Virus record (IMG/VR): IMGVR_UViG_2778261084_000006
Location: 1-25,050 of that record
Direction: 5' to 3' (one strand)
DNA from: a virus
Taxonomy: Duplodnaviria > Heunggongvirae > Uroviricota > Caudoviricetes
DNA length: 25,050 bases
The notes beneath the pieces were generated by a model. The model worked only from the letters and a program-made list of their open reading frames with translations, had not been told where the DNA came from and ran no database searches. The position numbers and the translations under genes were made by a program. Shown here in pieces: positions 2,401 through 21,473 of the stretch; position 1 is the first letter of the stretch; the number at the start of each line of letters is the position of its first letter.

Positions 2401-2410
2401 GGAGAACCGT

Positions 2411-3141: not shown

Positions 3142-3366
3142 ATGCATACAGTTTCTGAAAATCAGTGCGGTAAATACGCATTACTGCTGCAACAGGCCAG
3201 AACCGAAGCACAGGCCGATGCAGCGACGCGCTTTTCTTCTCATCTTGACGCCATGATTCGCCACATCACAAAGGCGGAGTTATCCCGCGTGGAGATAGTC
3301 GAGCTGCTCAGTCAGGAGTCGGAAAAATTTCACAACATCGGATTGTCTCGCGGGGAGGTGCTTTGA
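3142..3366 (+). CDS. small early-operon hypothetical protein (P2 orf80-like position)
   Basis: ATG at 3142 with ggagaaag RBS; track ORF starts at TTG 3109; stop overlaps next start. Confidence 0.5.
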
Positions 3367-3668: not shown

Positions 3669-3892
3669 TGCCGGACAACGTAGATTTTATTCAGGAACAA
3701 CAGGCTGAATTACTGGAGCGCCAGATTAACGCGGCAAGGGTAAAACATTGCGGTGCTTCTGCGCTGGTTTGCGAAGAGTGTGACGCGCCAATACCTGCTG
3801 CCCGTCGTGCGGCTTATCCGTCAGCCACGCGTTGTGTTTCCTGTCAGGCAGTCTTTGAAGCAAAAAACAAACATTACCGGAGAACGGCATGA
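3668..3892 (+). CDS. TraR/DksA-family C4 zinc-finger protein (P2 orf82-like)
   Basis: 74 aa; CGASALVCEECDAPIP...ATRCVSCQ gives CxxC-N17-CxxC; TAATG overlap with upstream gene. Confidence 0.75.
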   Translation: MPDNVDFIQEQQAELLERQINAARVKHCGASALVCEECDAPIPAARRAAYPSATRCVSCQAVFEAKNKHYRRTA

Positions 3893-4164
3893 GTATTCGT
3901 ATTGAAATTGGCGAACGTTATGTCGTTACCAGTGACAGCTTTCAGTTTATTCTCCACGAGAAAAAGAGAGCGGAAAGCGGTAAAAACGCCGGTCAGGAAT
4001 GGCTGGCGGTGGTTGGTTATTACCCGAAATTAAGCCAGCTCGTTTCCGGCCTGATGCATCACGATATTCTGACCGGAAGCGCAAAATCTTTTGCCGATTT
4101 AAACGTGCAGGTTGAGCAACTCAGCAGGCGTTGTTCAGAGGCTTTTGGCTCATATGGACGTTAA
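3889..4164 (+). CDS. small early-operon hypothetical protein (P2 orf83-like position)
   Basis: ATGA overlap with upstream stop; ggagaacgg RBS; 3' end overlaps the A start. Confidence 0.5.
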   Translation: MSIRIEIGERYVVTSDSFQFILHEKKRAESGKNAGQEWLAVVGYYPKLSQLVSGLMHHDILTGSAKSFADLNVQVEQLSRRCSEAFGSYGR

Positions 4165-6439
4165 AGCCTCCGGGCGTTTTGTCCCTCCGTCAGCATTTGC
4201 CGCAGGCACCGGTAAGACGTTTACCGGTGCTTATGCATGGAACGCGCCACGCGAGGCTGTCGGGCGCGAAAGACCCCTTACACGTGACGAGATGCGTCAG
4301 GTGCAAGGTGTTTTATCCACGATAAATCGCCTGCCTTATTTTTTGCGCTCGCTGTTTACTTCACGCTATGACTACATCCGGCGCAATAAAAGCCCGGTGC
4401 ACGGGTTTTATTTCCTCACATCCACTTTTCAGCGTCGTTTATGGCCGCGCATTGAGCGTGTGAATCAGCGCCATGAAATGAACACCGACGCGTCGTTGCT
4501 GTTTCTGGCAGAGCGTGACCATTATGCGCGCCTGCCGGGAATGAATGACAAGGAGCTGAAAAGGTTTGCCGCCCGTATCTCATCGCAGCTTTTCATGATG
4601 TATGAGGAACTCTGCGATGCCTGGGTGGATGCGCATGGCGAAAAAGAATCGCTGTTTACGGATGAGGCGCAGGCGTATCTGTATGGTCATGTTGCTGGCG
4701 CTGCACGTGCTTTCAATATTTCCCCGCTTTACTGGAAAAAATACCGTAAAGGACAGATGACCACGAGGCAGGCATATTCTGCCATTGCCCGTCTGTTTAA
4801 CGATGAGTGGTGGACTCATCAGCTTAAAGGCCAGCGTATGCGCTGGCATGAGGCGTTATTGATAGCTGTCGGGGAGGTCAATAAAGACCGTTCTCCTTAT
4901 GCCAGTAAACATGCCATTCGGGATGTGCGTGCGCGCCGTCAGGCAAATCTGGAGTTTCTTAAATCGTGTGACCTTGAAAACAGGGAAACCGGCGAACGCA
5001 TCGACCTTATCAGTAAGGTGATGGGCAGTATTTCTAATCCTGAAATTCGCCGGATGGAGCTGATGAACACCATTGCCGGTATTGAGCGTTACGCCGCCGC
5101 AGAGGGTGATGTGGGGATGTTTATCACGCTGACCGCGCCGTCAAAGTATCACCCGACACGTCAGGTCGGAAAAGGCGAAAGTAAAACCGTCCAGCTTAAT
5201 CACGGCTGGAATGATGAGGCATTTAATCCGAAGGATGCGCAGCGTTATCTCTGCCGTATCTGGAGCCTGATGCGCACGGCATTCAAGGATAATGATTTAC
5301 AGGTCTACGGTTTGCGAGTCGTCGAGCCACACCACGACGGAACGCCGCACTGGCATATGATGCTTTTTTGTAATCCACGCCAGCGTAACCAGATTATCGA
5401 AATCATGCGTCGCTACGCGCTCAAAGAGGATGGCGACGAAAGAGGAGCTGCGCGAAACCGTTTTCAGGCAAAACACCTTAACCGGGGCGGTGCTGCGGGA
5501 TATATCGCGAAATACATTTCAAAAAACATCGACGGCTATGCACTGGATGGTCAGCTCGATAACGATACCGGCAGGCCGCTGAAAGACACCGCCGCGGCTG
5601 TTACCGCATGGGCGTCAACGTGGCGCATCCCGCAATTTAAAACGGTTGGCCTGCCGACAATGGGGGCTTACCGTGAACTACGCAAATTGCCGCGCGGCGT
5701 CAGCATTGCTGATGAGTTTGACGAGCGCGTCGAGGCTGCACGCGCCGCCGCAGACAGTGGCGATTTTGCGTTGTATATCAGCGCGCAGGGTGGGGCAAAT
5801 GTCCCGCGCGATTGTCAGACTGTCAGAGTCGCCCGTAGCCCGTCGGATGACGTTAACGAGTACGAGGAAGAAGTCGAGAGAGTGGTCGGCATTTACGCGC
5901 CGCATCTCGGCGCGCGTCATATTCATATCACCAGAACGACGGACTGGCGCATTGTGCCGAAAGTTCCGGTCGTTGAGCCTTTGACTTTAAAAAGCGGCAT
6001 CGCCGCGCCTCGGAGTCCTGTCAATAACTGTGGAAAGCTCACCGGTGGTGATACTTCGTTACCGGCTCCCACACCTTCTGAGCACGCCGCAGCAGTGCTT
6101 AATCTGGTTGATGACGGTGTTATTGAATGGAATGAACCGGAGGTCGTGAGGGCGCTCAGGGGCGCATTAAAACACGACCTGCGAACGCCAAACCGTCAGC
6201 AAAGAAACGGAAGCCCGTTAAAACCACATGAAATTGCACCATCGGCCAGACTGACCCGGTCGGAAAGAATGCAAATTACCCGTATCCGCGTTGACCTTGC
6301 TCAGAACGGTATCAGGCCACAGCGATGGGAGCTTGAGGCGCTGGCGCGGGGAGCGACCATAAATTATGGCGGGAAAAAATTCACGTATCCGGTCACTGAT
6401 GAGTGGCCGGGATTCTCAACAGTAATGGAGTGGACATAA
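4154..6439 (+). CDS. A: rolling-circle replication initiator gpA (HUH endonuclease), 761 aa
   Basis: HUH-type motif HHDGTPHWHMMLF and tandem-tyrosine motif AGYIAKYISKNIDGY; first ATG at 4154 (MDVKASG...) gives 761 aa; track ORF starts at TTG 4112. Confidence 0.9.
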   Translation: MDVKASGRFVPPSAFAAGTGKTFTGAYAWNAPREAVGRERPLTRDEMRQVQGVLSTINRLPYFLRSLFTSRYDYIRRNKSPVHGFYFLTSTFQRRLWPRIERVNQRHEMNTDASLLFLAERDHYARLPGMNDKELKRFAARISSQLFMMYEELCDAWVDAHGEKESLFTDEAQAYLYGHVAGAARAFNISPLYWKKYRKGQMTTRQAYSAIARLFNDEWWTHQLKGQRMRWHEALLIAVGEVNKDRSPYASKHAIRDVRARRQANLEFLKSCDLENRETGERIDLISKVMGSISNPEIRRMELMNTIAGIERYAAAEGDVGMFITLTAPSKYHPTRQVGKGESKTVQLNHGWNDEAFNPKDAQRYLCRIWSLMRTAFKDNDLQVYGLRVVEPHHDGTPHWHMMLFCNPRQRNQIIEIMRRYALKEDGDERGAARNRFQAKHLNRGGAAGYIAKYISKNIDGYALDGQLDNDTGRPLKDTAAAVTAWASTWRIPQFKTVGLPTMGAYRELRKLPRGVSIADEFDERVEAARAAADSGDFALYISAQGGANVPRDCQTVRVARSPSDDVNEYEEEVERVVGIYAPHLGARHIHITRTTDWRIVPKVPVVEPLTLKSGIAAPRSPVNNCGKLTGGDTSLPAPTPSEHAAAVLNLVDDGVIEWNEPEVVRALRGALKHDLRTPNRQQRNGSPLKPHEIAPSARLTRSERMQITRIRVDLAQNGIRPQRWELEALARGATINYGGKKFTYPVTDEWPGFSTVMEWT

Positions 6440-6592
6440 TGGCAAAAATTCACGCAATATTAGATAATTTCGTACTGTATATATTTAGTGTTATTGAAAA
6501 ATCTCGACAGAAAGAGTTTTCTGTATTTAATCGTTGCTTGCAGTTTGGTATTGTTTACCATGATTGTTTGTTAAGTGCTTTAAAGGTGAGGA

Positions 6593-8431
6593 ATGAGCGA
6601 GTTTGATGTTTTTTCTATTTCAGTTGATGATTTTAAAAAAAGTGAATACGCCAGTATATTATCATCGCCAAGAAGTTATTCTCATTTTGATATGGAGTCT
6701 TATTTTGTTCAGTTGTTGTCATCTTACAAGCTAAAAAACGATGTAAGTTCTTGGCGGCTTTGCTATTTATTACGTGCGTTGTTTAATTTTAAATTTTCTA
6801 GGTCTGGTGATATTATCGGTTTTGAGCCAAAAATCATTCTCTATCCTGAGAGGGGCTATAGGCCTTCAGATTATAAGGAGAGTTTTTCAACAATATTAAC
6901 TTGTATTAAAGAAAACTCCGATAATCCTTATATTATATCTAGGGTGTGTGATGTTTTATGGATAAATAACCGTAAGGATATAGACTCTGCCAATAAAGCA
7001 ATAGAGTCATATTCTCTAATGGTTAATGATGCTTGCGATACTTTAATAGAAAAACAAGAGTCAGGTGATATCCATATTTTTGATGTTGTTGACTGCTTGG
7101 ATAGAGGTATCGCAATATCGCGCATGCTTATTGGCAGGAAAAAACAACTACAAGGGGGGATAGTTGATTCGACATTAAGGTTATATCATGTATTAATAGA
7201 CTCTGGTATATTCACCGGTGTATTAAGAGTTTCTGAAATTCTTTATAAGAATAATTTATTGTGTCCCTTGCAATTGGCTGAGAATGCAGAAAAGATAGCT
7301 GATGAGCATTGTGGAGCGTCTTATTTTGATGCAGTGAAAAAATTGTTTTATTTTGCGTCTGAATTATATGTTAAAAACGATATGGAAGAGCAAGGAAGAC
7401 GGTGCAGAATTAAAGCGTCAGAAATAACATTGGCTCAATTTGAACAGTCTTCATCTTCAATATTGAAGGCTCATTGGTTAAGAGTTGCTCTTGGCGAATT
7501 TAGAGCAATTGGTGGAATGAATGAAGAAATTAAAAAGATTAGAGAGGAATTGAATTCTATTCGAGATCAAATTAATGATGAAATGCACTTCTTTGCAATA
7601 CCAATGGATCTTAGTGATGTTATCGCTCAGAAAGAGCATGTTTATAATCAATTGGATTTCTCAAGGGTAATTAAAACTTTAATTGCTAGATTTAAGATTG
7701 TAAGTGCCAGTGAAATTATGGAAAGAGCTCGTTCCGATGCTAAAAAACATTTTTTTCTTAATATGAGTGAAACGGTTGTTTATGATGATAGAGGGCGCGT
7801 TGTAGCAAGTCGTTCACCTTTGGATCCTGCGGGGGATATAAGTTTAAATGATGCTTGTGCAAATTATTTAAGAACTAGTAACATTGAGCATCAGGTCTAT
7901 GTTTGTGGTGAGTTTGAAGTCGTTAGGCAAAGTGTGTTGGCTAGGTATTCATTAAATGAAAATACATTTGACCCAATCTCACAACAAAGTGCATTTGTTC
8001 CACCTGGGTATGCAGAAATATTTTCTTTGGGGTTTTATAAGCTTTGGCAGGGAGATTATGTGTCTGCCTGTTATTTGTTATTGCCGCAATTGGAGAATTC
8101 AATTAGATGGATTTTAGAATTAAGAAGAAAAGAAACAACGAAAATAGATGTGTCGCTTTTTGAGGAGGCTACTAGCCTATCTCAAATGCTTGCAAATTAT
8201 AGGAGTGAAATGGAAGGTGTTTTTGATAGTGATCATGTATTGACTATGGATTTATTGTTCAATATGAAAGGTGGTGCTGCAATTAGACACACGATGGCTC
8301 ATGGCAGGTATACTGTAAATCATTGTTATCAACCAACTTCAGTTTTTGCCTGTGTCTTTATCTTTTATTTAACTTGTTTGCCTTTATTTAGTGTATGGGA
8401 AGATAAAGTTGAACCTTATCTGGCTGATTAA
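6593..8431 (+). CDS. cargo protein of unknown function, 612 aa, in the A-to-cos variable locus; possible HEPN-like motif and C-terminal hydrophobic anchor
   Basis: long ORF in visibly AT-rich DNA with aaggtgagg RBS; no Walker A motif (so not an Old-type ATPase); GGAAIRHTMAHG (Rx4H) near C-terminus followed by hydrophobic SVFACVFIFYLTCLPLFSVW. Confidence 0.7.
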   Translation: MSEFDVFSISVDDFKKSEYASILSSPRSYSHFDMESYFVQLLSSYKLKNDVSSWRLCYLLRALFNFKFSRSGDIIGFEPKIILYPERGYRPSDYKESFSTILTCIKENSDNPYIISRVCDVLWINNRKDIDSANKAIESYSLMVNDACDTLIEKQESGDIHIFDVVDCLDRGIAISRMLIGRKKQLQGGIVDSTLRLYHVLIDSGIFTGVLRVSEILYKNNLLCPLQLAENAEKIADEHCGASYFDAVKKLFYFASELYVKNDMEEQGRRCRIKASEITLAQFEQSSSSILKAHWLRVALGEFRAIGGMNEEIKKIREELNSIRDQINDEMHFFAIPMDLSDVIAQKEHVYNQLDFSRVIKTLIARFKIVSASEIMERARSDAKKHFFLNMSETVVYDDRGRVVASRSPLDPAGDISLNDACANYLRTSNIEHQVYVCGEFEVVRQSVLARYSLNENTFDPISQQSAFVPPGYAEIFSLGFYKLWQGDYVSACYLLLPQLENSIRWILELRRKETTKIDVSLFEEATSLSQMLANYRSEMEGVFDSDHVLTMDLLFNMKGGAAIRHTMAHGRYTVNHCYQPTSVFACVFIFYLTCLPLFSVWEDKVEPYLAD

Positions 8432-8592
8432 TGGAAGTTGATTTAGGTATTTTGGCATTTATCTTTCTGCGTGCAATATGTGCATGGTTTTGCATGTGCC
8501 GGAGTTGCATGTTCCGGCCGTGCGTCCGCCAGGACGGGCGTGGCTCAAAAGCGGTATTGCACTTGCATTAAAACCGCCCCACGAAGCGGGCG

Positions 8593-8611
8593 GGCGAGGC
8601 GGGGAAAGCAC
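8593..8611 (+). other. putative cos cohesive-end sequence (ggcgaggcggggaaagcac)
   Basis: 19-mer matches my recollection of the P2 cohesive end; lies between the A-side cargo and Q as expected for the P2 genome end; not verifiable here. Confidence 0.55.
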
Positions 8612-8744
8612 TGCGCGCAATGATGTCAGTTTGAGGGCATCAGGCATGGGGACACTACACAGTTTCATTTTTGTTATTAATTGTTTATCATATAAGTGTT
8701 TGTTTTTTGAACGGCATGTCGTGTGCTATATGGAGTGAATAGAA

Positions 8745-9014
8745 GTGACTAAATTTGACAAAAAAAAAGCAATTTCTATTTTAACAGAAAAAAAAGCCTT
8801 GCTCCCATGTCATCGGTGTGGAAATTCAAAGTTCATCATTTTGGATGGCATATCATCACTTCCATTAATGGAAAATATGGAAATGATTGGTAGTATTGTT
8901 GTTGGCGGAATGAATGCTCCTGTATTACATGTGGCATGTGAGAATTGTGGTGCAGTTACTTCACATTTGCTTGGGGCACTTGGTTTAATGCCGGAGATTA
9001 AATCAAATGACTAA
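8745..9014 (+). CDS. small zinc-ribbon protein (CxxC...CxxC), hypothetical cargo
   Basis: 89 aa from GTG start with ggagtg RBS; CHRCGN ... CENCGA cysteine pairs; last 8 nt overlap the next ORF. Confidence 0.6.
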   Translation: MTKFDKKKAISILTEKKALLPCHRCGNSKFIILDGISSLPLMENMEMIGSIVVGGMNAPVLHVACENCGAVTSHLLGALGLMPEIKSND

Positions 9015-9477
9015 GGATGTTTTTTTCTCTGATGAAGGTAGTGGTAAAAAAAGTGCTGTCTTGCATGGGGCGCAGGTTACAATAAACCCTGATTCGCAAT
9101 TTACAAAAAAGATAATTAGGCAGACTGAGGTTGATGTTATTGTGATAAGTGATGATAAACTTCATATAATTTTGACGAATTGCTTATCTAAAATTGCATC
9201 ATTAAACCGCTGGTCAACACCTTTGGGTATTTTAATTACCTTGGCGGTAACTATGTTAACCACAAATTTTAAGAATTTTATTCTTCAGGATTCTGTGTGG
9301 GAGGCTGTTTTCTGGATGCTTATTTTTTTTAATATTATCTGGTTGGTGAAAAACATTCCATATAGACACTTATTTTTAACTGTTTGTCATTCTATAGGGG
9401 TTCGTAAAGATAAAAAAAGAATTAGTGATGTATACCACATTATAGATATAATTAAACAAGGTGATACACGCTTTTGA
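9007..9477 (+). CDS. small membrane protein with two predicted TM helices, hypothetical cargo
   Basis: 156 aa; hydrophobic segments WSTPLGILITLAVTMLTTNF and WEAVFWMLIFFNIIWLV; start overlaps upstream stop (translational coupling); AT-rich. Confidence 0.6.
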   Translation: MTKDVFFSDEGSGKKSAVLHGAQVTINPDSQFTKKIIRQTEVDVIVISDDKLHIILTNCLSKIASLNRWSTPLGILITLAVTMLTTNFKNFILQDSVWEAVFWMLIFFNIIWLVKNIPYRHLFLTVCHSIGVRKDKKRISDVYHIIDIIKQGDTRF

Positions 9478-9510
9478 TTTAATATCAATATTTGATTGAG
9501 TATATAATAA

Positions 9511-9533
9511 AGCCGCCTGAGTTTATGGCGGCT
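9511..9533. terminator. bidirectional hairpin between convergent cargo gene and Q
   Basis: stem agccgcc / ggcggct with 9-nt loop, flanked by A/T-rich runs on both sides. Confidence 0.45.
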
Positions 9534-9553
9534 AATATAGGGTGTGTGCTAAG

Positions 9554-10573
9554 TCATAATGTGTATTTGTTGAATCTAATTATTTCTTCGCCAACCCATT
9601 CATTAAGGGCAATAAAGCGAGATTGAATAGGAGTAAGCTCATTGCGGACAAAGACCTTTGCCACTTTCTCAATATCACCCAGTGACCCGACGTTCTCCGG
9701 CTTGCCGCCCATCAACTGAAAGGGGATGCGGTGCGCGTCCAGCAGGTCAGCGGCGCTGGCTTTTTTGATATTAAAAAAATCGTCCTTCGTCGCCACTTCA
9801 CTGAGGGGGATAATTTTAATGCCGTCGGCTTTCCCCTGTGGGGCATAGAGAAACAGGTTTTTAAAGTTGTTGCGGCCTTTCGACTTGACCATGTTTTCGC
9901 GAAGCATTTCGATATCGTTGCGATCCTGCACGGCATCAGTGACGTACATGATGTATCCGGCATGAGCGCCGTTTTCGTAATACTTGCGGCGGAACAGCGT
10001 GGCCGACTCATTCAGCCAGGCAGAGTTAAGGGCGCTGAGATATTCCGGCAGGCCGTACAGCTCCTGATTAATATCGGGCTCCAGCAGGTGAAACACGGAG
10101 CCGGGCGCGAAGGCTGTCGGCTCGTTGAAGGACGGCACCCACCAGTAAACATCCTCTTCCACGCCACGACGGGTATATTTTGCCGGTGAGGTTTCCAGTC
10201 TGATGACCTTACCGGTGGTGCTGTAACGCTTTTCCAGAAACGCATTACCGAACACCAGAAAATCCAGCACAAAGCGGCTGAAATCCTGCTGGGAAAGCCA
10301 CGGATGCGGAATAAACGTTGAAGCCAGAATATTGCGTTTAACGTAAATCGGCGAGCTGTGATGCACGGCAGCACGCAGGCTTTTTGCCAGACCGGTAAAG
10401 CTGACCGGTGGCTCATACCATCTGCCGTTACTGATGCACTCGACGTAATCCAGAATGTCACGGCGGTCGAGAACCGGCACCGGCTCGCCAAAGGTGAATG
10501 CCTCCATTTTCGGGGCGCTGGCGGTCATTTTTTTTGCCGCTGGTCGCGGTGTTTTCCCTTTTTTCTTGCTCAT
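9554..10573 (-). CDS. Q: portal protein gpQ (P2-like)
   Basis: 339 aa, MSKKKGKTPRPAAKK...; Q start overlaps P stop (ATGA) as in P2. Confidence 0.9.
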   Translation of the reverse strand: MSKKKGKTPRPAAKKMTASAPKMEAFTFGEPVPVLDRRDILDYVECISNGRWYEPPVSFTGLAKSLRAAVHHSSPIYVKRNILASTFIPHPWLSQQDFSRFVLDFLVFGNAFLEKRYSTTGKVIRLETSPAKYTRRGVEEDVYWWVPSFNEPTAFAPGSVFHLLEPDINQELYGLPEYLSALNSAWLNESATLFRRKYYENGAHAGYIMYVTDAVQDRNDIEMLRENMVKSKGRNNFKNLFLYAPQGKADGIKIIPLSEVATKDDFFNIKKASAADLLDAHRIPFQLMGGKPENVGSLGDIEKVAKVFVRNELTPIQSRFIALNEWVGEEIIRFNKYTL

Positions 10574-11250
10574 CAGTAAAACTCCAGAATGGTGGATGTC
10601 AGCGGAGTGCTGATACCCGCGGTGAGTGGCTCATTTAACAGGGCGTGCATGGTCGCCCAGGCGAGGTCGGCGTGGCTGGCTTCCTCGCTGCGGCTGGCCT
10701 CATAGGTGGCGCTGCGTCCGCTGCTGGTCATGGTCTTGCGGATAGCCATAAACGAGCTGGTGATGTCGGTGGCGCTGACGTCATATTCCAGACAGCCACG
10801 GCGGATGACGTCTTTTGCCTTGAGCACCATTGCGGTTTTCATTTCCGGCGTGTAGCGGATATCGCGCGCGGCGGGATAGAACGAGCGCACGAGCTGGAAC
10901 ACGCCGACACCGAGGCCGGTGGCATCAATACCGATGTATTCAACGTTATATTTTTCGGTGAGTTTGCGGATGGATTCCGCCTGGGTGGCAAAGTCCATGC
11001 CTTTCCACTGGTGACGCTCAAGTATTCTGAATTTGCCACCGGCCACCACCGGCGGTGCCAGTACCACGCATCCGGCGCTGTCGCCACGGTGTGACGGGTC
11101 GTAACCAATCCATACCGGACGTGAGCCGAACGGATTGGCGGCAAACGGCGCATAGTCTTCCCATTCTTCCAGCGTGTCGACCATGCAGCGTTGCAGCTCC
11201 TCGACCCGAATTTTGCTACCACCATGACTAATGCGCTTGCGGGTAAGCAA
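10573..11250 (-). pseudogene. P: terminase large subunit gpP, 5'-truncated (C-terminal ~225-237 codons only)
   Basis: C-terminal nuclease-domain-like sequence (WIGYDPSHRGDSAGCVVLAPP...YIGIDATGLGVGVF); frame closed by an in-frame stop at 11287-11289; full P2 gpP is ~590 aa; upstream DNA is tail-fibre coding on the other strand. Confidence 0.8.
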
Positions 11251-12318
11251 CCGAAAGATGCCACTTTGACGGCGCTGGCGGGGCTTGCTACTGCGGCAGA
11301 CAGGTTTCCGTATTTTACGGGGAATGATGTTGCCAGCCTGGCGACCCTGACAAAAGTCGGGCGGGATATTCTGGCTAAATCGACCGTTGCCGCCGTTATC
11401 GAATATCTCGGTTTACAGGAAACGGTAAACCGAGCCGGGAACGCCGTGCAAAAAAATGGCGATACCTTGTCCGGTGGACTTACTTTTGAAAACGACTCAA
11501 TCCTTGCCTGGATTCGAAATACTGACTGGGCGAAGATTGGATTTAAAAATGATGCCGATGGTGACACTGATTCATACATGTGGTTTGAAACGGGGGATAA
11601 CGGCAATGAATATTTCAAATGGAGAAGTCGCCAGAGCACCACAACAAAAGACCTGATGAATCTTAAATGGGATGCTCTGTATGTTCTTGTTAAAGCCCTT
11701 TTCAGCAGTGAAGTAAAAATATCTACAGTCAATGCGCTGAGGATATTTAATTCATCTTTTGGTGCTATTTTTCGCCGTTCTGAAGAAAACCTGTATATCA
11801 TTCCTACACGAGAAAATGAGGGTGAAAATGGAGATATTGGGCCATTAAGGCCATTCGGCATCAACTTAAGAACAGGAGTTGTGTCTGTTGGTAATGGTGC
11901 CAGGATTGATGGCGGGCTGGCACTTGGCACGAATAACGCGTTGGGTGGGAACTCTATTGTTCTTGGTGATAACGACACCGGATTTAAACAAAATGGCGAT
12001 GGTAATCTGGATGTTTATGCTAATAACGTCCATGTTATGCGCTTTGTTTCCGGAAGCATTCAAAGTAATAAGACCATAAATATTACGGGGCGTGTTAATC
12101 CCTCGGATTACGGTAACTTTGATTCCCGCTATGTGAGAGATATCAGACTTGGCACACGTGTTGTCCAGACCATGCAGAAAGGGGTGATGTATGAGAAAGC
12201 AGGGCACGTAATTACCGGGCTTGGTATTGTCGGTGAAGTCGATGGTGATGACCCCGCAGTATTCAGGCCAATACAAAAATACATCAATGGCACATGGTAT
12301 AACGTCGCACAGGTGTAA
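11191..12318 (+). pseudogene. H: tail fibre gpH-like, 5'-truncated (C-terminal ~365 aa)
   Basis: conserved tail-fibre block NALAGKQPKDATLTALAGLATAADRFPYFTGNDVASLATL begins at ~11230; ORF opens at TTG 11191 inside P-derived DNA; followed by tail fibre assembly gene. Confidence 0.75.
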
Positions 12319-12321
12319 TTT

Positions 12322-12849
12322 ATGCAGCATTTAAAAAATATTACTGCGGGTAATCCAAAAACTGTTGCCCAATATCAACTGACAAAAAATTTTGATGTTA
12401 TCTGGTTATGGTCCGAAGAGGGAAAAAACTGGTATGAGGAAGTAAGTAATTTTCAGGAAGACACGATAAAGATTGTTTACGACGAGAATAATATAATTGT
12501 CGGCATCACCAGAGATGCTTCAACGCTTAACCCTGAAGGTTTCAGCGTTGTCGAGGTTCCTGATATTACCTCCAACCGACGTGCTGATGACTCAGGTAAA
12601 TGGATGTTTAAGGATGGTGCCGTGATTAAGCGGATTTATACGGCAGATGAACAGGAGCAACAGGCAGAATCACAAAAGGCAGCTTTACTTTCCGAAGCTG
12701 AATCCGTGATTTTGCCGCTGGAACGCGCTGTCAGGCTGAATATGGCGACGGATGAGGAACGCAGCCGACTGGAAGCATGGGAACGCTACAGCGTTCTGGT
12801 CAGTCGTGTGGATCCTGCAAATCCCGAATGGCCGGAAATGCCGCAATAA
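12322..12849 (+). CDS. G: tail fibre assembly chaperone gpG
   Basis: 175 aa, [41 protein letters not shown] ... [12 protein letters not shown]; matches my recollection of P2 gpG. Confidence 0.9.
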
Positions 12850-13117
12850 GTTGTATGATCTCTGGTGTGAGCTTACATATCTATAGCACAGAGTAAAGCC
12901 TAATCTGACAGTCCGCTATGTGCCAAAAGCGGAAGTTGCTTCGTGCTGGGATAGGATGATTATGGAAATGTGTTCATGAGCATTTCATGACGCATGAATT
13001 GAATTATAATTCAATTAGATATACTATATTTATAATTAAAAATAGCATTGTAATATTTAAAAGATATATGTTATTGATACGCATATTTATTCTTTTAAAT
13101 TCACAAGTGAGGTTTGT

Positions 13118-14140
13118 ATGCGTAGAGTAGTAATTGACACAAATATTTTATATGCTCTGACTGGAGTTTCTGTGAATGAAAAGGTGGTAACTTCGAGTCT
13201 TAATGATTTTAAGCTATCCATAACCACCCCATCAATTATAGAGATGGTTGTTAAATTTCAATATGATTTAGATACAATAAAGAAATGCCTCGAACCTATC
13301 ATAAATGAAAGCATTGAGCTCATTAGCATAGGTCACGCCCCAATTCCGAATGAATATCTTTACATGTTACACTTCGCGAAGGAAATAGAAGAAGTTACAG
13401 ATCTCATTGATGAGATTAAAACGTTAAAAATCTCCAGGGAAGCTGAATTCTACAGGTTTATACTTATATTAGTTGTTTCTGGGTTATTTGAGGTTATTAG
13501 AGAGGATGGCTACAAATTTTGTGATGAGGCACGAAATCAAAAACAATTAATGATGGTGCGTTCTTTATTTGAGTCTAACATGGATCTAATATTAGATTAC
13601 TTTAAAGATGAAATACGTAATGGATATATGAATGGAAATGAACAACAAGCTGCCCTAGATGCTTTCCAAAGTAAAATAATCATGTTATTAAATATTTTTC
13701 ATATAAATTATCATATGATTAAAACCGATACATTTCCTTATAATGAATCCTCGGTGAACCTTGAGAACTTAATCACTAGTTTAGATAGTGATTGCTTTAA
13801 CATAAAACTTAAAAAATACATCGATAATCCTTTATTTTTTGCATCTAAAGCAAAATACAATTCGATAATAAATAATTATATGGCAGAAATGAGAAATGGA
13901 ATGCTAGATTTGAGTGGACTCACTGAGAAGTCTATGGATTTCCTATTGAATAAGATTGACAGTGCTTATAAAAATGGCAGGAAGTTGCGAAAAAATGACA
14001 TATTTGATTTCCTGATTGTTATTTCCTTAAACATGCCAGACACTTTGATTGTTACACTTGATAAAGGTTTCCTGAAAGATCTTGAACATCTTGATTATAA
14101 TAGCTACCAACTTTGTCAAAAGTTAGGCTATATAAATTGA
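13118..14140 (+). CDS. PIN-like domain protein (putative nuclease), 340 aa, cargo in G-to-FI variable locus
   Basis: N-terminus MRRVVIDTNILYAL (PIN first strand with Asp), downstream PSIIEMVVKF (second acidic), C-terminal LIVTLDKGF (PIN TxD..F-like); AT-rich; agtgagg RBS. Confidence 0.6.
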   Translation: MRRVVIDTNILYALTGVSVNEKVVTSSLNDFKLSITTPSIIEMVVKFQYDLDTIKKCLEPIINESIELISIGHAPIPNEYLYMLHFAKEIEEVTDLIDEIKTLKISREAEFYRFILILVVSGLFEVIREDGYKFCDEARNQKQLMMVRSLFESNMDLILDYFKDEIRNGYMNGNEQQAALDAFQSKIIMLLNIFHINYHMIKTDTFPYNESSVNLENLITSLDSDCFNIKLKKYIDNPLFFASKAKYNSIINNYMAEMRNGMLDLSGLTEKSMDFLLNKIDSAYKNGRKLRKNDIFDFLIVISLNMPDTLIVTLDKGFLKDLEHLDYNSYQLCQKLGYIN

Positions 14141-14348
14141 AACTTTCAGTGAATGTAATGAAACCATTACACCAACTTTTAGATGACTCTGGATAAGACA
14201 ACAGTAAGAATAATTGCAGAGGTCCTCTTTTCGCTCATAGCAGCCCTCGCGGCGCTTCAGACGGTCTGCTTCGTGCTGGAGCGGACCTAAGTGCCTAGCT
14301 ATGAGTGGCACGACAGAATACAATGTAAAATAAAATACCCTTGCAGGG

Positions 14349-15407
14349 ATGAAAATAATGATTGAACCGTTTAGTTGGGAAAATTGGAAGCAAGTATACC
14401 TACATAAAAAAAACAAGAAGCGAGTTTCTCTTGAACGATACGGATTGAGAAGTCTTCACTCTGTCGCCAGCTTGGACTTAATCGTATCAAAAGTTCATGA
14501 ATTATATTTAAAAAAACAGCAAGAAGTGGCTGTTAATGCTAAATCTGTTTGGATAGATGGAACTCCTCAGGCTAAATTCAAGAGTGTCGATGGCTCTGTC
14601 TTAAACTGCGAATTGGCGGATCTTCTGTTTATTATTCACGAGATGGATAATAAAAACAAAACAATAAATTTTCGAGCTACCTTATTACAAGGTAAGTGTT
14701 CTGAGAAACATAATTTACTCCCAAATGGACCTTCGACAGATAAAGAAAGAAAACTGCTCGAATCTATCGATCGCAATGAGTATTTGTACTTATACCCAGG
14801 CACGAGGGCATACGGAGAAAAAATAGGGAAATATAAATTAGGCGGGGAGAACATCGGATTAGCGGACTGTGCGAAATATTTAATTATGCCTAAATATGAA
14901 AGATGGAAATATAAAACACCTGATAATATATCTCCTTACGTAATTGGCTGGCCAAACAAAATATCATCCAATTATTTAACCAATGTTGTAAATTACATGG
15001 ATGTAATTCTTGAAAAAATGATTTCATCAAAGACCATGGGAAAGGAAATAAATTTAACGATGCAAAACCATATAGACAGGCAATGTGAGTGGTCAAAAAT
15101 GATTTATGATTTGTTAAATAGCTACTTACCGATAACAATGAAGGGCTATGACTCCCAACGAAGAGTATATAAGTCAAGTTTATTTGACGATAATATGTCT
15201 GCTACATTAGCATTGATTAATAATGGTCACTGTGATTTCATAAGTAAACATGCTTTTAAAGACTTGCCTAAAGGTAAGGGTAGGTTTTTATATCAACATA
15301 CATTAAATATTCTTGGGGATTACTCTAGCCCCGTTATTTCAACAATATATATCCAAATCAAACAAAAGGAAGGGGAAATATATCGTCAATCTCTTGGGGT
15401 TGATTGA
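14349..15407 (+). CDS. hypothetical protein, 352 aa, cargo
   Basis: long AT-rich ORF on same strand as the PIN-like gene; no motif recognised; alternative start at 14358. Confidence 0.6.
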   Translation: MKIMIEPFSWENWKQVYLHKKNKKRVSLERYGLRSLHSVASLDLIVSKVHELYLKKQQEVAVNAKSVWIDGTPQAKFKSVDGSVLNCELADLLFIIHEMDNKNKTINFRATLLQGKCSEKHNLLPNGPSTDKERKLLESIDRNEYLYLYPGTRAYGEKIGKYKLGGENIGLADCAKYLIMPKYERWKYKTPDNISPYVIGWPNKISSNYLTNVVNYMDVILEKMISSKTMGKEINLTMQNHIDRQCEWSKMIYDLLNSYLPITMKGYDSQRRVYKSSLFDDNMSATLALINNGHCDFISKHAFKDLPKGKGRFLYQHTLNILGDYSSPVISTIYIQIKQKEGEIYRQSLGVD

Positions 15408-15655
15408 GTTAGGAGTAACTGTTTGCTAAAGACTATATTTCCACTCTTGACGAGAATAATAAGATGCTCGGTTTTATTAGCAGAGTTATTTTAAAATTCA
15501 ATTCAGAAAGATATGATTGTGTTTAGGCTTAGGTCCACTCCTCGCTCATAGCAGACCTGATAATGTTCTGTCGATCAGTGGGTTCAAGAAAAGGACTATT
15601 AATCATCAACTATTAGTTGACCATTATCGTCATCGAAAATATTAGGTAAAAAATT

Positions 15656-15694
15656 GAGCCACAGACAAAAATATATTGAATTAACCTGTGGCTC
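15656..15694 (-). terminator. hairpin downstream of the GNAT gene (stem gagccacag / ctgtggctc, 21-nt loop)
   Basis: perfect 9-bp stem; on the minus strand it is followed by a T-run (complement of aaaaaatt); long loop lowers confidence. Confidence 0.4.
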
Positions 15695-15701
15695 TTTAAC
15701 A

Positions 15702-16352
15702 TTAGAGGTACATGCTCATCGGTATGCCTTGCCCTGCCTCAAGAGCAGCTTTACCTATCCATGTATCATGAACAACAAATCCATATTTTTCAAAATGCTT
15801 CTTGAGTGGTATGTCCGCAGCGGTAAGATATATTTCCTCAATGCCTTCTTGCTTACAATACTGTATGGCGTTTTCCAGAAGTTCGGCGAAAAGCCCAAGG
15901 CCATGATATTCTTGGAAGTCATATTTTTGAGGGATTACTGGTTCGTAGGGATTTACAAGCATTACATCAACGATCATTAAAATATTAGGGTAGGAATGTG
16001 CTAATATGAGCTCTACCGTCTCTTTATCATCCAGTTCTGGATCCTGAACCTCTCCATGTACATATAAAATATCTTTAATAACATTTTCATTTATATGTTT
16101 TGACACTTTTTTATATAGTAGCGGGTTATTAGTTTGGCATTCCCTTCCAAATATAAACTTATCTTGGTTAGGATTTGCATTGCAGAAACGGTCCCACGCT
16201 GCAATACCTATCTGAAAAAGATCATTTGGTTTATTTCTTACAAGGAATTCTATTCGCTCAATTCCATATTCTATGAATTTTACTGGATTAGTAAATTTTT
16301 TTGTTATTGATTCAGAAGGAAGTATAGCGTTTAATCTTCTCTGGTTTTCCAT
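15702..16352 (-). CDS. GNAT-family N-acetyltransferase, 216 aa, cargo
   Basis: acetyl-CoA-binding motif A region EYHGLGLFAELLENAIQYCKQEGIEEIYLTAAD and C-terminal KKHFEKYGF typical of GNAT fold; ATG with aggtg RBS; convergent with the 352-aa ORF. Confidence 0.7.
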   Translation of the reverse strand: MENQRRLNAILPSESITKKFTNPVKFIEYGIERIEFLVRNKPNDLFQIGIAAWDRFCNANPNQDKFIFGRECQTNNPLLYKKVSKHINENVIKDILYVHGEVQDPELDDKETVELILAHSYPNILMIVDVMLVNPYEPVIPQKYDFQEYHGLGLFAELLENAIQYCKQEGIEEIYLTAADIPLKKHFEKYGFVVHDTWIGKAALEAGQGIPMSMYL

Positions 16353-16693
16353 AATTCACACCTTGTAATTACCTCATGAAAATAATCTATATGTTGCACC
16401 AAGAAAGATAACATTGCCATAATTTATTAACTGGCCTATGACGCACATCAAGAATGGTCGTATCGGAATAAGGAGTAGCGGAAGATTATACCAGCAGATT
16501 TGCTACAAATATTAATAGTAGTTCTGGTGATGCTATGGGCTAGCATCACGAAAATGATGAATCATGTGTTATGCGGACACGATACTTGATCATAACGACA
16601 GCTTCTCGCTCAAAGCAGACTGTCAGATTTGATAGCGTTTTGGCTATGTAAATTGTCAGTCGGGAAATAAGTGAGTACAAATCATGACAGGCG

Positions 16694-16720
16694 GGCGGAT
16701 TGTCCGCCTTTTCTTTATCT
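16694..16720 (+). terminator. intrinsic-terminator-like hairpin plus T-tract upstream of FI
   Basis: ggcgga-ttg-tccgcc followed by ttttctttatctgttgtttc. Confidence 0.4.
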
Positions 16721-16813
16721 GTTGTTTCATCCACTGACCAGCCAGGTCAAATAGCGTCTCATGCTCTGCACAACAGAAAATACCACTCACCCATTAACCA
16801 CGGAGTTAGACGG

Positions 16814-18004
16814 ATGAGTGACTATCATCACGGCGTGCAGGTGCTGGAGATTAACGACGGCACCCGCGTCATTTCCACCGTATCCACTGCCATTGTCGGC
16901 ATGGTCTGCACGGCCAGCGATGCAGATGCGGAAACCTTCCCCCTCAATAAACCGGTGCTGATTACCAATGTGCAGAGCGCAATTGCAAAGGCCGGTAAAA
17001 AAGGCACGCTGGCGGCGTCGTTACAGGCCATCGCTGACCAGTCAAAACCGGTCACCGTTGTTGTGCGCGTGGAAGACGGCACCGGCGACGACGAAGAAAC
17101 GAAACTTGCGCAGACCGTTTCCAATATCATCGGCACCACCGACGAAAACGGTCAGTACACCGGACTGAAAGCCCTGCTGGCGGCGGAGTCGGTAACCGGT
17201 GTTAAACCGCGTATTCTCGGCGTGCCGGGACTGGATACCAAAGAGGTGGCTGTTGCACTGGCATCAGTCTGTCAGAAGCTGCGCGCTTTCGGGTATATCA
17301 GCGCATGGGGCTGTAAAACCATTTCTGAGGTGAAAGCCTACCGCCAGAATTTCAGCCAGCGTGAGCTGATGGTCATCTGGCCGGATTTCCTCGCATGGGA
17401 TACGGTCACCAGTACCACCGCCACCGCGTATGCCACTGCCCGTGCGCTGGGGCTGCGCGCTAAAATCGACCAGGAGCAGGGCTGGCATAAAACGCTGTCC
17501 AACGTTGGGGTGAACGGTGTTACCGGCATCAGTGCATCTGTATTCTGGGATTTGCAGGAGTCCGGCACCGATGCTGACCTGCTTAACGAGTCAGGCGTCA
17601 CTACGCTGATTCGCCGCGACGGTTTCCGCTTCTGGGGTAACCGTACCTGCTCTGATGACCCGCTGTTCCTCTTTGAAAACTACACCCGCACCGCGCAGGT
17701 GCTGGCCGACACGATGGCTGAGGCGCACATGTGGGCGGTGGACAAGCCCATCACCGCAACGCTGATTCGCGACATCGTTGACGGTATCAATGCCAAATTC
17801 CGTGAGCTGAAAACAAACGGCTATATCGTGGATGCGACCTGCTGGTTCAGCGAAGAATCCAACGATGCGGAAACCCTCAAGGCCGGAAAACTGTATATCG
17901 ACTACGACTATACACCGGTGCCTCCTCTCGAAAACCTGACCCTGCGCCAGCGTATTACCGATAAATACCTGGCAAATCTGGTCACCTCGGTTAACAGCAA
18001 TTAA
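16814..18004 (+). CDS. FI: tail sheath protein gpFI
   Basis: MSDYHHGVQVLEINDGTRVISTVSTAIVGMVCTASDADAETFPLNKPVLITNVQ ...; 396 aa from ATG 16814 (track ORF starts upstream at 16700). Confidence 0.95.
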   Translation: MSDYHHGVQVLEINDGTRVISTVSTAIVGMVCTASDADAETFPLNKPVLITNVQSAIAKAGKKGTLAASLQAIADQSKPVTVVVRVEDGTGDDEETKLAQTVSNIIGTTDENGQYTGLKALLAAESVTGVKPRILGVPGLDTKEVAVALASVCQKLRAFGYISAWGCKTISEVKAYRQNFSQRELMVIWPDFLAWDTVTSTTATAYATARALGLRAKIDQEQGWHKTLSNVGVNGVTGISASVFWDLQESGTDADLLNESGVTTLIRRDGFRFWGNRTCSDDPLFLFENYTRTAQVLADTMAEAHMWAVDKPITATLIRDIVDGINAKFRELKTNGYIVDATCWFSEESNDAETLKAGKLYIDYDYTPVPPLENLTLRQRITDKYLANLVTSVNSN

Positions 18005-18016
18005 GGAGCCTGACCG

Positions 18017-18535
18017 ATGGCAATGCCGCGCAAACTCAAATTAATGAACGTCTTTCTGAACGGCTACAGCTATCAGGGCGTTGCAAAGTCCGTCACGCTG
18101 CCAAAACTGACCCGTAAGCTCGAAAACTATCGCGGTGCGGGAATGAACGGCAGCGCACCGGTAGACCTCGGCCTTGATGACGATGCGCTGTCAATGGAGT
18201 GGTCGCTGGGTGGCTTCCCGGATTCGGTTATCTGGGAGCTTTACGCCGCAACCGGTGTGGATGCTGTGCCGATTCGTTTTGCAGGCTCTTACCAGCGTGA
18301 CGATACCGGCGAAACGGTGGCCGTCGAGGTGGTCATGCGTGGACGTCAGAAAGAAATCGACACCGGCGAGGGTAAACAGGGAGAAGACACCGAGTCGAAA
18401 ATCTCCGTGGTCTGCACCTATTTCCGGCTGACGATGGACGGTAAGAAGCTGGTCGAAATCGACACCATCAACATGATTGAGAAGGTGAACGGCGTCGACC
18501 GGCTGGAGCAACACCGCCGCAATATCGGCCTGTGA
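18017..18535 (+). CDS. FII: tail tube protein gpFII
   Basis: 172 aa, MAMPRKLKLMNVFLNGYSYQGVAKSVTLPKLTRKLENYRGAGMNG. Confidence 0.95.
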   Translation: MAMPRKLKLMNVFLNGYSYQGVAKSVTLPKLTRKLENYRGAGMNGSAPVDLGLDDDALSMEWSLGGFPDSVIWELYAATGVDAVPIRFAGSYQRDDTGETVAVEVVMRGRQKEIDTGEGKQGEDTESKISVVCTYFRLTMDGKKLVEIDTINMIEKVNGVDRLEQHRRNIGL

Positions 18536-18591
18536 TTTTCATCCGGTCAGCCTGGCTGACCGGTTAACCCCGATTCATAAGTGAGAAAACC

Positions 18592-18867
18592 ATGAACAAA
18601 GAAAATGTGATTACCCTGGACAATCCGGTCAAACGTGGTGAGCAGGTTATCGAACAGGTCACGCTGATGAAACCCAGTGCCGGGACGCTGCGCGGTGTCA
18701 GTCTGGCAGCGGTCGCAAACTCCGAAGTCGATGCACTGATTAAGGTGTTGCCGCGCATGACGGCACCGATGCTGACCGAGCAGGAAGTCGCCGCACTGGA
18801 ACTGCCTGACCTTGTGGCGCTGGCCGGTAAGGTGGTCGGTTTTTTGTCACCGAACTCGGTGCAGTGA
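18592..18867 (+). CDS. E: tail assembly chaperone gpE
   Basis: 91 aa; position between FII and T; ends just after slippery TTTTTTG. Confidence 0.9.
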   Translation: MNKENVITLDNPVKRGEQVIEQVTLMKPSAGTLRGVSLAAVANSEVDALIKVLPRMTAPMLTEQEVAALELPDLVALAGKVVGFLSPNSVQ

Positions 18868-19019
18868 CGTTTCCGAAAAATCTCTCGGTCGATGACCTGA
18901 TGGCGGATGTGGCAGTGATATTTCACTGGCCGCCATCAGAACTGTATCCCATGAGCCTGACCGAACTCATCACATGGCGCGAAAAGGCGCTCCGGCGAAG
19001 CGGAAACACGAATGAGTAA
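18592..19019 (+). CDS. E': gpE+E' fusion by programmed -1 ribosomal frameshift at TTTTTTG (18840-18846)
   Basis: slippery heptamer inside the last codons of E; the -1 frame stays open to TAA at 19017-19019, overlapping the T start (19012); standard P2 and general tail-chaperone arrangement. Confidence 0.75.
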
Positions 19020-21459
19020 CAATGTAAAATTACAGGTATTGCTCAGGGCTGTTGACCAGGCATCCCGCCCGTTTAAATCCATCCGCACAGCGAGCAAATC
19101 GCTGTCGGGGGATATCCGGGAAACACAAAAATCACTGCGCGAGCTGAACGGTCACGCATCCCGTATTGAGGGATTTCGCAAGACCAGTGCACAGCTCGCC
19201 GTGACTGGTCATGCACTTGAAAAGGCACGGCAGGAGGCCGAAGCCCTTGCCACACAGTTTAAAAACACCGAACGTCCGACACGTGCTCAGGCGAAAGTGC
19301 TGGAATCCGCGAAGCGTGCGGCGGAGGACTTACAGGCGAAATATTACCGCCTGACGGATTCCGTTAAACGCCAGCAGCGGGAACTGGCCGTTGTGGGAAT
19401 TAATACCCGCAATCTTGCACATGATGAGCAGGGACTGAAAAACCGTATCAGTGAAACCACCGCCCAGCTTAACCGGCAGCGTGACGCGCTGGCGCGTGTC
19501 AGTGCGCAACAGGCAAAACTTAACGCAGTCAAACAGCGTTATCAGGCCGGAAAGGAACTGGCCGGAAATATGGCCTCAGTGGGCGCTGCCGGTGTGGGGA
19601 TTGCTGCTGCGGGAACGATGGCCGGAGTTAAGTTGCTGATGCCCGGTTATGAGTTTGCGCAGAAAAACTCAGAATTGCAGGCCGTGCTCGGTGTGGCAAA
19701 AGACTCCGCCGAAATGGCCGCGCTCCGCAAGCAGGCGCGCCAGCTCGGCGACAATACCGCAGCCTCGGCAGATGATGCAGCCGGTGCTCAGATTATTATT
19801 GCGAAAGCCGGTGGGGATGTTGATGCCATTCAGGCGGCAACGCCGGTCACGCTGAATATGGCGCTGGCGAACCGTCGCACGATGGAAGAAAACGCCGCCC
19901 TGCTGATGGGGATGAAATCCGCCTTTCAGCTTTCAAACGATAAGGTCGCTCATATCGGGGATGTTCTCTCCATGACGATGAACAAAACCGCCGCCGATTT
20001 TGACGGTATGAGCGATGCGCTGACCTATGCCGCACCTGTGGCAAAAAATGCCGGTGTCAGCATTGAAGAAACCGCCGCAATGGTCGGGGCGCTGCATGAT
20101 GCAAAAATTACCGGTTCAATGGCGGGGACGGGAAGCCGTGCCGTGTTAAGTCGCCTGCAGGCACCGACGGGAAAAGCATGGGATGCACTCAAAGAGCTTG
20201 GAGTGAAAACCTCAGATAGCAAGGGAAACACCCGACCAGTATTTACAATTCTGAAAGAAATGCAGGCCAGTTTTGAGAAAAACCGGCTCGGTACTGCCCA
20301 GCAGGCTGAATACATGAAAACCATTTTCGGGGAGGAGGCCAGCTCAGCCGCCGCCGTGCTGATGACTGCCGCCTCAACCGGAAAGCTGGACAAACTGACC
20401 GCTGCGTTTAAAGCCTCAGACGGGAAGACCGCGGAGCTGGTAAATATCATGCAGGACAACCTCGGCGGTGACTTTAAGGAGTTTCAGTCCGCTTATGAGG
20501 CGGTGGGGACTGACCTGTTTGACCAGCAGGAAGGCGCGCTGCGTAAGCTCACGCAGACGGCCACAAAGTATGTGTTAAAACTCGACGGCTGGATACAGAA
20601 AAACAAATCACTGGCGTCAACCATCGGCATCATTGTCGGTGGTGCACTGGCGCTGACTGGTGTCATCGGTGCCATTGGCCTCGTAGCCTGGCCGGTTATC
20701 ACCGGCATCAATGCCATCATCGCGGCAGCAGGCGCAATGGGTGCAATCTTCACGACGGTTGGTAGTGCCATTATGACGGCCATCGGGGCGATTAGCTGGC
20801 CGGTTGTGGCCGTGGTGGCTGCCATTGTCGCCGGGGCGTTGCTTATCCGTAAATACTGGGAGCCTGTCAGCGCATTCTTTGGCGGTGTGGTTGAAGGGCT
20901 GAAAGCGGCATTTGCGCCGGTGGGGGAGCTGTTCACGCCACTGAAACCGGTGTTTGACTGGCTGGGCGAAAAGTTACAGGCCGCGTGGCAGTGGTTTAAA
21001 AACCTGATTGCCCCGGTTAAAGCCACCCAGGACACCCTGAATCGTTGCCGTGACACGGGCGTCATGTTCGGGCAGGCACTGGCTGACGCGCTGATGCTGC
21101 CGCTTAATGCGTTCAACAAACTGCGCAGCGGTATTGACTGGGTACTGGAAAAGCTCGGGGTCATCAACAAAGAGTCTGACGCACTTGACCAGACCGCCGC
21201 CAGAACTCAAGCCGCCACGTATGGCAGCGGTGGTTATATTCCGGCGACCAGCTCTTATGCAGGCTATCAGGCTTATCAGCCGGTTACGGCACCGGCTGGC
21301 CGCTCTTATGTGGACCAGAGTAAAAACGAATATCACATCAGTCTGACGGGCGGTACTGCACCGGGGACTCAGCTCGACCGCCAGTTACAGGATGCGCTCG
21401 AAAAATACGAGCGGGATAAACGTGCGCGCGCCCGTGCCAGCATGATGCATGACGGTTAA
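19012..21459 (+). CDS. T: tail tape measure protein gpT, 815 aa
   Basis: long alpha-helical protein with Ala/Gly-rich hydrophobic central segment (GIIVGGALALTGVIGAIGLVAWPV...), positioned after E/E'. Confidence 0.9.
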   Translation: MSNNVKLQVLLRAVDQASRPFKSIRTASKSLSGDIRETQKSLRELNGHASRIEGFRKTSAQLAVTGHALEKARQEAEALATQFKNTERPTRAQAKVLESAKRAAEDLQAKYYRLTDSVKRQQRELAVVGINTRNLAHDEQGLKNRISETTAQLNRQRDALARVSAQQAKLNAVKQRYQAGKELAGNMASVGAAGVGIAAAGTMAGVKLLMPGYEFAQKNSELQAVLGVAKDSAEMAALRKQARQLGDNTAASADDAAGAQIIIAKAGGDVDAIQAATPVTLNMALANRRTMEENAALLMGMKSAFQLSNDKVAHIGDVLSMTMNKTAADFDGMSDALTYAAPVAKNAGVSIEETAAMVGALHDAKITGSMAGTGSRAVLSRLQAPTGKAWDALKELGVKTSDSKGNTRPVFTILKEMQASFEKNRLGTAQQAEYMKTIFGEEASSAAAVLMTAASTGKLDKLTAAFKASDGKTAELVNIMQDNLGGDFKEFQSAYEAVGTDLFDQQEGALRKLTQTATKYVLKLDGWIQKNKSLASTIGIIVGGALALTGVIGAIGLVAWPVITGINAIIAAAGAMGAIFTTVGSAIMTAIGAISWPVVAVVAAIVAGALLIRKYWEPVSAFFGGVVEGLKAAFAPVGELFTPLKPVFDWLGEKLQAAWQWFKNLIAPVKATQDTLNRCRDTGVMFGQALADALMLPLNAFNKLRSGIDWVLEKLGVINKESDALDQTAARTQAATYGSGGYIPATSSYAGYQAYQPVTAPAGRSYVDQSKNEYHISLTGGTAPGTQLDRQLQDALEKYERDKRARARASMMHDG

Positions 21460-21473
21460 GGAGGTGACGAAAA

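Follow-up and report, generated by a model that had tools for sequence, protein, structure and literature searches.

A P2-like prophage at the yegR/yegQ site of Escherichia coli, probably crippled by one recent deletion between the terminase gene P and the tail-fibre gene H

The chromosome of Escherichia coli K-12 carries next to yegQ a cryptic P2 remnant (the ogrK region), which we take to have become defective via the loss of most phage genes at the yegR/yegQ site. The element described here, which lies at the same chromosomal locus, keeps 23 kb with both att sites, int and the replicon, whereas the K-12 remnant is presumably a short right-end fragment only. More generally, the capsid and packaging operons Q to L serve as core markers of P2-like prophages, and P2 is known to harbor two defence hotspots, one between GpA and GpQ near cos and the other at Z/fun (PMC13586616). 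Incomplete P2-like prophages that lack core genes, show pseudogenisation and carry hotspot cargo identical to that of intact elements have been described in the same work, which leaves their domestication undecided (PMC13586616). Our element likewise lacks core genes, but it displays one clean, datable deletion and the defence role of its cargo is putative.

The DNA analysed (hereafter the window) is the 25,050-nt stretch formed by positions 1–25,050 of the IMG/VR virus record IMGVR_UViG_2778261084_000006. Whole-window blastn against phage P2 (NC_001895 with its annotation) gives four collinear blocks with 97–98% nucleotide identity, which span att–int–C–cox–B–A, Q–P, part of H with G, and the F operon–ogr–att in the same gene order as in P2, so that the backbone is that of a Peduovirus (Table 1). 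The prophage is flanked by the E. coli genes yegR and yegQ/trhP and measures 23.0 kb. Its 27-bp att core, present as a perfect copy at both ends, and its 19-nt cos ends are identical to those of P2, and its integrase is 99.7% identical to P2 Int, as expected for a P2-like prophage; of the Q-to-L core operons, only Q and the 3′ third of P are left, O, N, M and L being absent. Using all P2 proteins as tblastn queries, we found matches for 21 of them in the window, 19 over their full length and two, P and H, over part of it. The genes int, C, cox, orf78, B, orf80–83, A, FI, FII, E, T, U, D and ogr are full length with 97–100% identity. Hence, a previous reading of the sequence alone (the sequence-only reading) was right in stating that int, C/cox and the replication, portal, sheath, tube, tape-measure and ogr genes are retained: all are full length, with 95–100% amino acid identity to P2. 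The cargo regions that it listed are present too, as are cos and both att cores. Compared to P2, tin/old, orf91 and Z/fun are swapped for different cargo, the cos–Q interval contains two additional ORFs, H has a distal part of the type found in Escherichia phage P2_AC1, and P2 coordinates 1853–13663 have no counterpart in the window according to blastn.

Table 1. Positions of the features of the P2-like element in the window and of its blocks of similarity to P2 (NC_001895)
Feature	Window position	Strand	Description	Basis
Block 1	475–6454		P2 24355–30334; att core, int, C, cox, B, A	blastn
attL	476–502		27-bp core identical to the P2 attP core	exact match to P2 24356–24382
int	582–1595	−	full length, 337 aa	99.7% aa identity to P2 Int 1–337
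Immunity switch	1711–2400		C repressor 1711–2010 (−), Pe/Pc operator region, cox 2125–2400 (+)	C and Cox 100% identical to P2; operators placed from P2 annotation and sequence
Early replication operon	2411–6439	+	orf78, B, orf80–83, A (with ori), full length	97–100% aa identity, full coverage
A-to-Q hotspot cargo gene	6593–8431	+	612 aa, in place of orf91/tin/old	Pfam DUF7380, E = 1.9e-24; PADLOC PDC-S39, E = 2e-68
cos	8593–8611		19-nt cohesive-end sequence GGCGAGGCGGGGAAAGCAC, P2-like flanks	window 8564–8618 matches the P2 cosR/cosL junction
Two small ORFs between cos and Q	8745–9477	+	8745–9014 (89 aa) and 9007–9477 (156 aa), absent from P2	ORF list
Q portal gene	9554–10573	−	full length, 339 aa; pP promoter gone	95% aa identity to P2 gpQ 1–339; P2 annotation
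Block 2	9634–11204		P2 282–1852; Q, 3′ end of P	blastn
P remnant	10573–11204	−	stop codon and codons 382–590 of gpP, nuclease domain only	tblastn (100% aa identity), Pfam
Deletion junction	11203–11204		2-nt GA common to both parental sides, no filler DNA	three-way alignment, parental breakpoints, reconstruction
Block 3	11203–11697 and 12112–12933		P2 13664–14158 (middle of H) and 14537–15357 (end of H plus G)	blastn
H remnant	11203–12318	+	codons 311–681, distal receptor-binding part; lacks the baseplate-attachment N-terminus and pV	370/371 residues identical to P2_AC1 H
G tail-fibre assembly gene	12322–12849	+	full length	Caudo_TAP; 92% identity to P2 gpG
Z/fun-position cargo	13118–16352		340-aa and 349-aa genes (+), 216-aa gene (−)	family searches
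Block 4	16601–23544		P2 17436–24382; F operon, ogr, att core	blastn
F operon	16814–23116	+	FI sheath, FII tube, E/E′, T tape measure, U, D, full length	98–100% aa identity
ogr late-gene activator	23198–23416	+	full length	100% identical to P2 Ogr
attR	23518–23544		second perfect copy of the 27-bp core	

The sequence-only reading had proposed that a deletion fuses P to H somewhere within positions 11190–11290. Alignment to P2 and to P2_AC1 locates the junction inside this interval, at 11203/11204. When window 9500–13000 was compared to phage genomes by megablast, it split into two clean halves, the first (9630–11204) about 98% identical to the Q–P region of P2 and of many relatives, and the second (11203–12922) 99.1% identical to the H–G region of P2_AC1. 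Against P2 itself, the sequence is 98.0% identical on the left side of the junction (block 2, Q and the 3′ part of P) and 97.2% identical on its right side (the first segment of block 3, in the middle of H). The E values of the matches flanking the junction to P2 and P2_AC1 are equal to 0, far beyond chance. More specifically, in the three-way alignment the window tracks the P region of P2 up to ...CAGCTCCTCGA and tracks H starting at GACCCGAATTTTGC..., so that the dinucleotide GA belongs to both sides and there is no additional base between them.

Both products encoded next to the junction are fragments, of a 590-aa and of a 681-aa protein, respectively, rather than full-length genes of a different phage family. 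What is left of P encodes the last 209 residues of gpP, i.e. the C-terminal third of the protein (the gene lies on the minus strand, and its 3′ end is retained), in which Pfam only detects the Terminase_6C nuclease domain. Similarly, the only Pfam domain of the H remnant is Gp34_trimer; the N-terminal domains Phage_tail_fib and Phage_fiber_2, present in full-length H copies such as that of the sibling prophage L013, are gone. The details of the two reading frames differ from those first put forward. The P frame does not end at a stop codon at 11287–11289, since the minus-strand translation of 11349–10573 is uninterrupted: the frame stays open past the junction into antisense H, the first upstream in-frame stop is a TAA at 11413–11415, and the TAG complement at 11288–11290 is out of the P frame. 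Likewise, the figure of about 365 residues given for H fits the 364-aa ORF that starts at the ATG at 11224 on the plus strand, but the H-derived codons actually start at 11203 and number 371. The 225-aa ORF found for P in a mechanical ORF list begins at a TTG at 11250, inside H-derived DNA, and gene callers applied to identical contigs give the P remnant 203 aa and the H remnant 364 aa. We discarded as spurious a 379-aa minus-strand ORF spanning the junction (10839–11978), which no gene caller reports in the carrier contigs. The 23-kb region should be annotated as a defective P2-like prophage, in which P (10573–11204) and H (11203–12318) are pseudogene fragments and not genes of 203–225 and 364–375 aa.

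Several complete E. coli genomes contain intact P2-like prophages of 32–41 kb between yegR and yegQ; with its full core, this attachment site appears to have served many P2-like phages. The intact siblings L018, L030 and that of ECC-1470 share with the window the integration site, the A-to-Q cargo and at least 99.9% identity on either arm, but keep full P, O to S, V to I and H; overall, intact siblings show 2–7 differences per ~11 kb relative to the window. L018 (GCA_025640765.1) is identical to window 1–11204 apart from three differences (99.97%) and then continues into a full 590-aa P, followed by O, N and onward, while L030 (GCA_046116555.1) is identical to window 11203–22851 apart from seven differences (99.94%) and extends upstream into I, J, W and V. 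Using these two loci, which overlap by 7.3 kb with 99.97% identity, we built a composite intact parent rather than relying on a single one. Removal of 10,947 bp from this composite reproduces the window junction exactly. Thus, relatives about 99.9% identical to the window possess a 590-aa P and an uninterrupted P-to-H interval, as expected if the window derives from such a prophage by an internal deletion. Note that the 681-aa H of this type was called in P2_AC1 and L013, the gene caller giving no H for L030. In P2 coordinates the missing interval is 11,811 bp long, mostly because the siblings lack orf30, which P2 carries.

At least 21 contigs, which come from independent NCBI, ENA and Logan samples, carry the exact 364-aa H-remnant ORF, and look-ups of the Q protein add L015 and L020, further records with this structure from ENA and NCBI. 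Loci L006–L010 share an identical 71-nt string at the junction, and L015 and L020 align to the window as a single collinear block over the junction. Altogether, the deletion carriers differ from the window by 0–4 SNPs over 4–21 kb. Among them, NNWW01000013 matches window 1224–22318 at 100% identity, and the isolate it comes from was placed in ST641 E. coli by a published comparison (PMC8467794). The junction allele surfaced only through the exact-protein look-up of the 364-aa ORF: a 601-bp query retrieved the junction from none of 5,426 complete RefSeq E. coli genomes, and there was no match in GTDB species representatives, IMG/VR viral contigs or JGI metagenomes. Because the same junction is present in at least 21 contigs that are 0–4 SNPs apart, an assembly artefact can be set aside and a single recent event is indicated. 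The window taken alone cannot show what lies elsewhere in the genome, so that a rearrangement relocating the missing genes is conceivable as a general possibility; yet the carrier contigs, which reach hundreds of kb, come from independent assemblies and runs, and the orientation of the join, P 3′ to H 3′, is that of a simple-deletion product, which an inversion would not give. Artefact and relocation are thus both scarcely credible. In our opinion, the deletion is very probably a single recent event within one E. coli lineage, to which the ST641 isolate belongs.

Three of the carriers (L008, L015 and L020) form a sub-clade with three defining SNPs, two of which fall in the 114-bp C–cox switch region. 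The first, 2035 A>G, lies one base before operator O2 and just after the −10 element of Pe; the second, 2122 G>T, precedes the cox ATG by 3 nt. At both positions, the alleles of the window are also those of P2 and of every intact sibling examined. By a post hoc hand estimate, the chance that two out of three SNPs fall in this region is about 2e-4.

As to how the ends were joined, homologous, site-specific and IS-mediated deletion were considered and rejected: within ±150 bp of the parental breakpoints, the only repeats are chance matches of 6–8 nt (E ≥ 1), and there is neither an IS element nor filler DNA at the join. The 2-nt microhomology is not diagnostic, because two or more shared nucleotides are expected in ~16% of random joins (hand calculation with P(k) = (k+1)(1/4)^k(3/4)^2 and equal base frequencies); therefore, the sequence would fit replication slippage, topoisomerase error and end joining alike. 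We are thus confident, although short of certainty, in the following explanation: a P2-like (Peduovirus) prophage located between yegR and yegQ/trhP would have undergone a single, recent internal deletion of 10,947 bp, with one breakpoint within codon 381 of P and the other at the end of codon 310 of H, the ends being joined by illegitimate, homology-independent recombination, as one instance of a recurrent decay process. The DNA that is gone comprises the late-promoter regions pP/pO and pV, the half of P that encodes the ATPase, the genes O, N, M, L, X, Y, K, lysA/B/C, R, S, V, W, J and I, and the half of H that binds the baseplate; the switch, integration, replication and F-operon modules are formally intact.

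The absence of head, lysis and baseplate genes between P and H, claimed by the sequence-only reading, was borne out within the window, where tblastn with the P2 proteins gave no match for O, N, M, L, X, Y, K, lysA/B/C, R, S, orf30, V, W, J and I. According to the P2 annotation, P, O, N, M, L, K, Y, V, W, J, I and H are essential in P2. Judging from P2 genetics, the remnant would therefore be devoid of the terminase ATPase, the small terminase subunit, the scaffold, the capsid and the head-completion protein, and also of the holin, the endolysin, the spanins, the baseplate and tail-completion proteins and a fibre able to attach to the baseplate; it would be unable to build heads, baseplates or fibres, to package DNA or to lyse the cell. 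Excision and replication are probably still possible, but the formation of particles is probably not. A second P2-like prophage elsewhere in the host genome may complement the loss. The presence of P2-type sheath, tube, tape-measure, U and D genes and the lack of head genes are reminiscent of R-type tailocins. However, a tailocin depends on a baseplate, complete fibres and a lysis cassette, and since tblastn detected none of V, W, J, I, X, R, S, the N-terminus of H, Y, K and lysA/B/C, we rejected a tailocin function.

Both the P and the H remnants lack their 5′ ends and promoters. The promoter/activator sites of pP/pO and pV lie at P2 3016–3127 and 10239–10308 according to the P2 annotation. 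Because both fall in the deleted interval, we infer that no late promoter remains for Q, the P remnant, the H remnant or G. The promoter pF is retained, as are the F operon and ogr. A consensus scan revealed no new promoter at the junction, with seven sigma-70-like matches in window 9400–13200 versus 5.7 ± 2.4 in shuffled sequences.

The retained modules raise the question of mobility. P2-size heads can hold P4 dimers of ~23 kb, and the 23.0-kb element has an intact cos core with its flanks, perfect 27-bp repeats as attL and attR, and full-length int, cox, B and A; it could thus behave as a helper-dependent mini-P2 that excises, replicates and is packaged by a heteroimmune P2-like helper, which would move its cargo. 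If so, it would be a satellite in the making, issued from the helper lineage itself and spreading rare cargo in heteroimmune P2-like capsids, and the sub-clade described above would be a sister acquiring early-promoter and cox-leader changes. Nevertheless, in every examined carrier whose sequence extends to the ends of the element the insertion site is again yegR/yegQ, the junction is not found in IMG/VR viral contigs or JGI metagenomes, and no helper-manipulating gene was recognised among the ORFs, so that this possibility, which is pure inference, is very doubtful. A P4-like satellite would be expected to have cos and helper-subversion genes of the sid/psu/delta type and to lack structural genes. 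The element has cos, its backbone is that of P2 with many structural genes, and family searches detected no satellite-type family among the cargo ORFs. The window element is a defective derivative of a P2-like prophage and a new allele of a well-known kind of object.

The cargo of the window occupies both P2 hotspots, A-to-Q and Z/fun. The A-to-Q gene encodes a 612-aa DUF7380 protein that also matches PHROG 5183, PDC-S39 being a candidate-defence family of PADLOC; the gene is present at 99.9% identity in six complete E. coli genomes, including ECC-1470. The two ORFs located between cos and Q are called as genes in sibling contigs and match only a PHROG of unknown function. In P2, the distance between cos and the Q stop codon is only about 170 bp plus the tQ terminator, so that these ORFs mark one more small cargo site, on the right of cos. 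The proteins encoded at the Z/fun position match no Pfam, PADLOC or NCBIfam family, except for a sub-threshold GNAT match on the 216-aa protein, and the corresponding DNA has no match in the 5,426 complete E. coli genomes. Their homologues are sparse (Enterobacterales, Pantoea, Vibrio and others), and the NCBI name for the 349-aa family is ‘lysogenic conversion protein’; a defence or conversion module that is as yet uncharacterised is one possible reading of these genes. The deletion reveals no new kind of system; this Z/fun-position cargo, which is separate from it, is the more interesting material of the window.

The sequence-only reading went further and proposed a domesticated element kept for its cargo or regulators, i.e. 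a remnant selected for the DUF7380/PDC-S39 candidate defence gene, the Z/fun cargo or the regulators C, Cox and Ogr. In favor of this proposal, the cargo genes are intact in two known P2 defence hotspots, and defective P2-like prophages with near-identical defence genes have been described (PMC13586616); moreover, the two sub-clade SNPs of the C–cox region could reflect selection silencing the remnant. Against it, the cargo is no more intact than FI, FII, T, U, D and Q, genes that serve no purpose when the baseplate is missing: all retained genes are intact, useful or not, and too few substitutions have occurred since the deletion for purifying selection to be compared between them. Nor is there long vertical persistence over diverged hosts, the carriers being almost identical to one another and the intact siblings equally close, which leaves no time for a signal of selection, and the absence of the junction from the complete E. 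coli genomes points to a rare allele in a narrow lineage. Hence, domestication receives no support from the data and seems unlikely to us. With a deletion this recent, the intact state of what remains carries no information on selection: the retained genes are intact simply because the deletion is young, and the element is an ordinary crippled prophage with no sign of special maintenance.

Crippled prophages of this kind arise repeatedly at this site. The siblings L013, L026 and L027, also inserted at yegR/yegQ, have undergone independent multi-kb deletions with different breakpoints. L013, which is 99.8–99.9% identical over most shared blocks, lacks cox to A, P to I and part of FI/FII; L026 lacks P to X and Y to I; and L027 lacks O to S, J to H and FI to T/U. 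A breakpoint falls inside P in three of the four deletion alleles, that of the window included, among loci that were ascertained via Q and G look-ups. Since sibling loci were found through exact Q or G proteins, the presence of Q or G in them reflects the way they were ascertained. The window deletion is therefore one example of a recurrent deletional decay of this prophage family, and a clean and datable one, in which every head, lysis and baseplate function was lost at once. The corresponding parent/derivative pairs, with 99.9% identity, would lend themselves to measuring how often prophage deletions occur and how their breakpoints are distributed.

Two minor observations concern the same site. 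RefSeq labels the ogr copy located at yegR/yegQ ‘ogrK’. In addition, P is shorter by 63 bp (21 codons), in frame, in the intact siblings L014, L016 and L019, where it encodes 569 aa versus 590 aa; the difference maps to window 10718–10768, in the region of the nuclease domain, and these siblings are otherwise near-identical.
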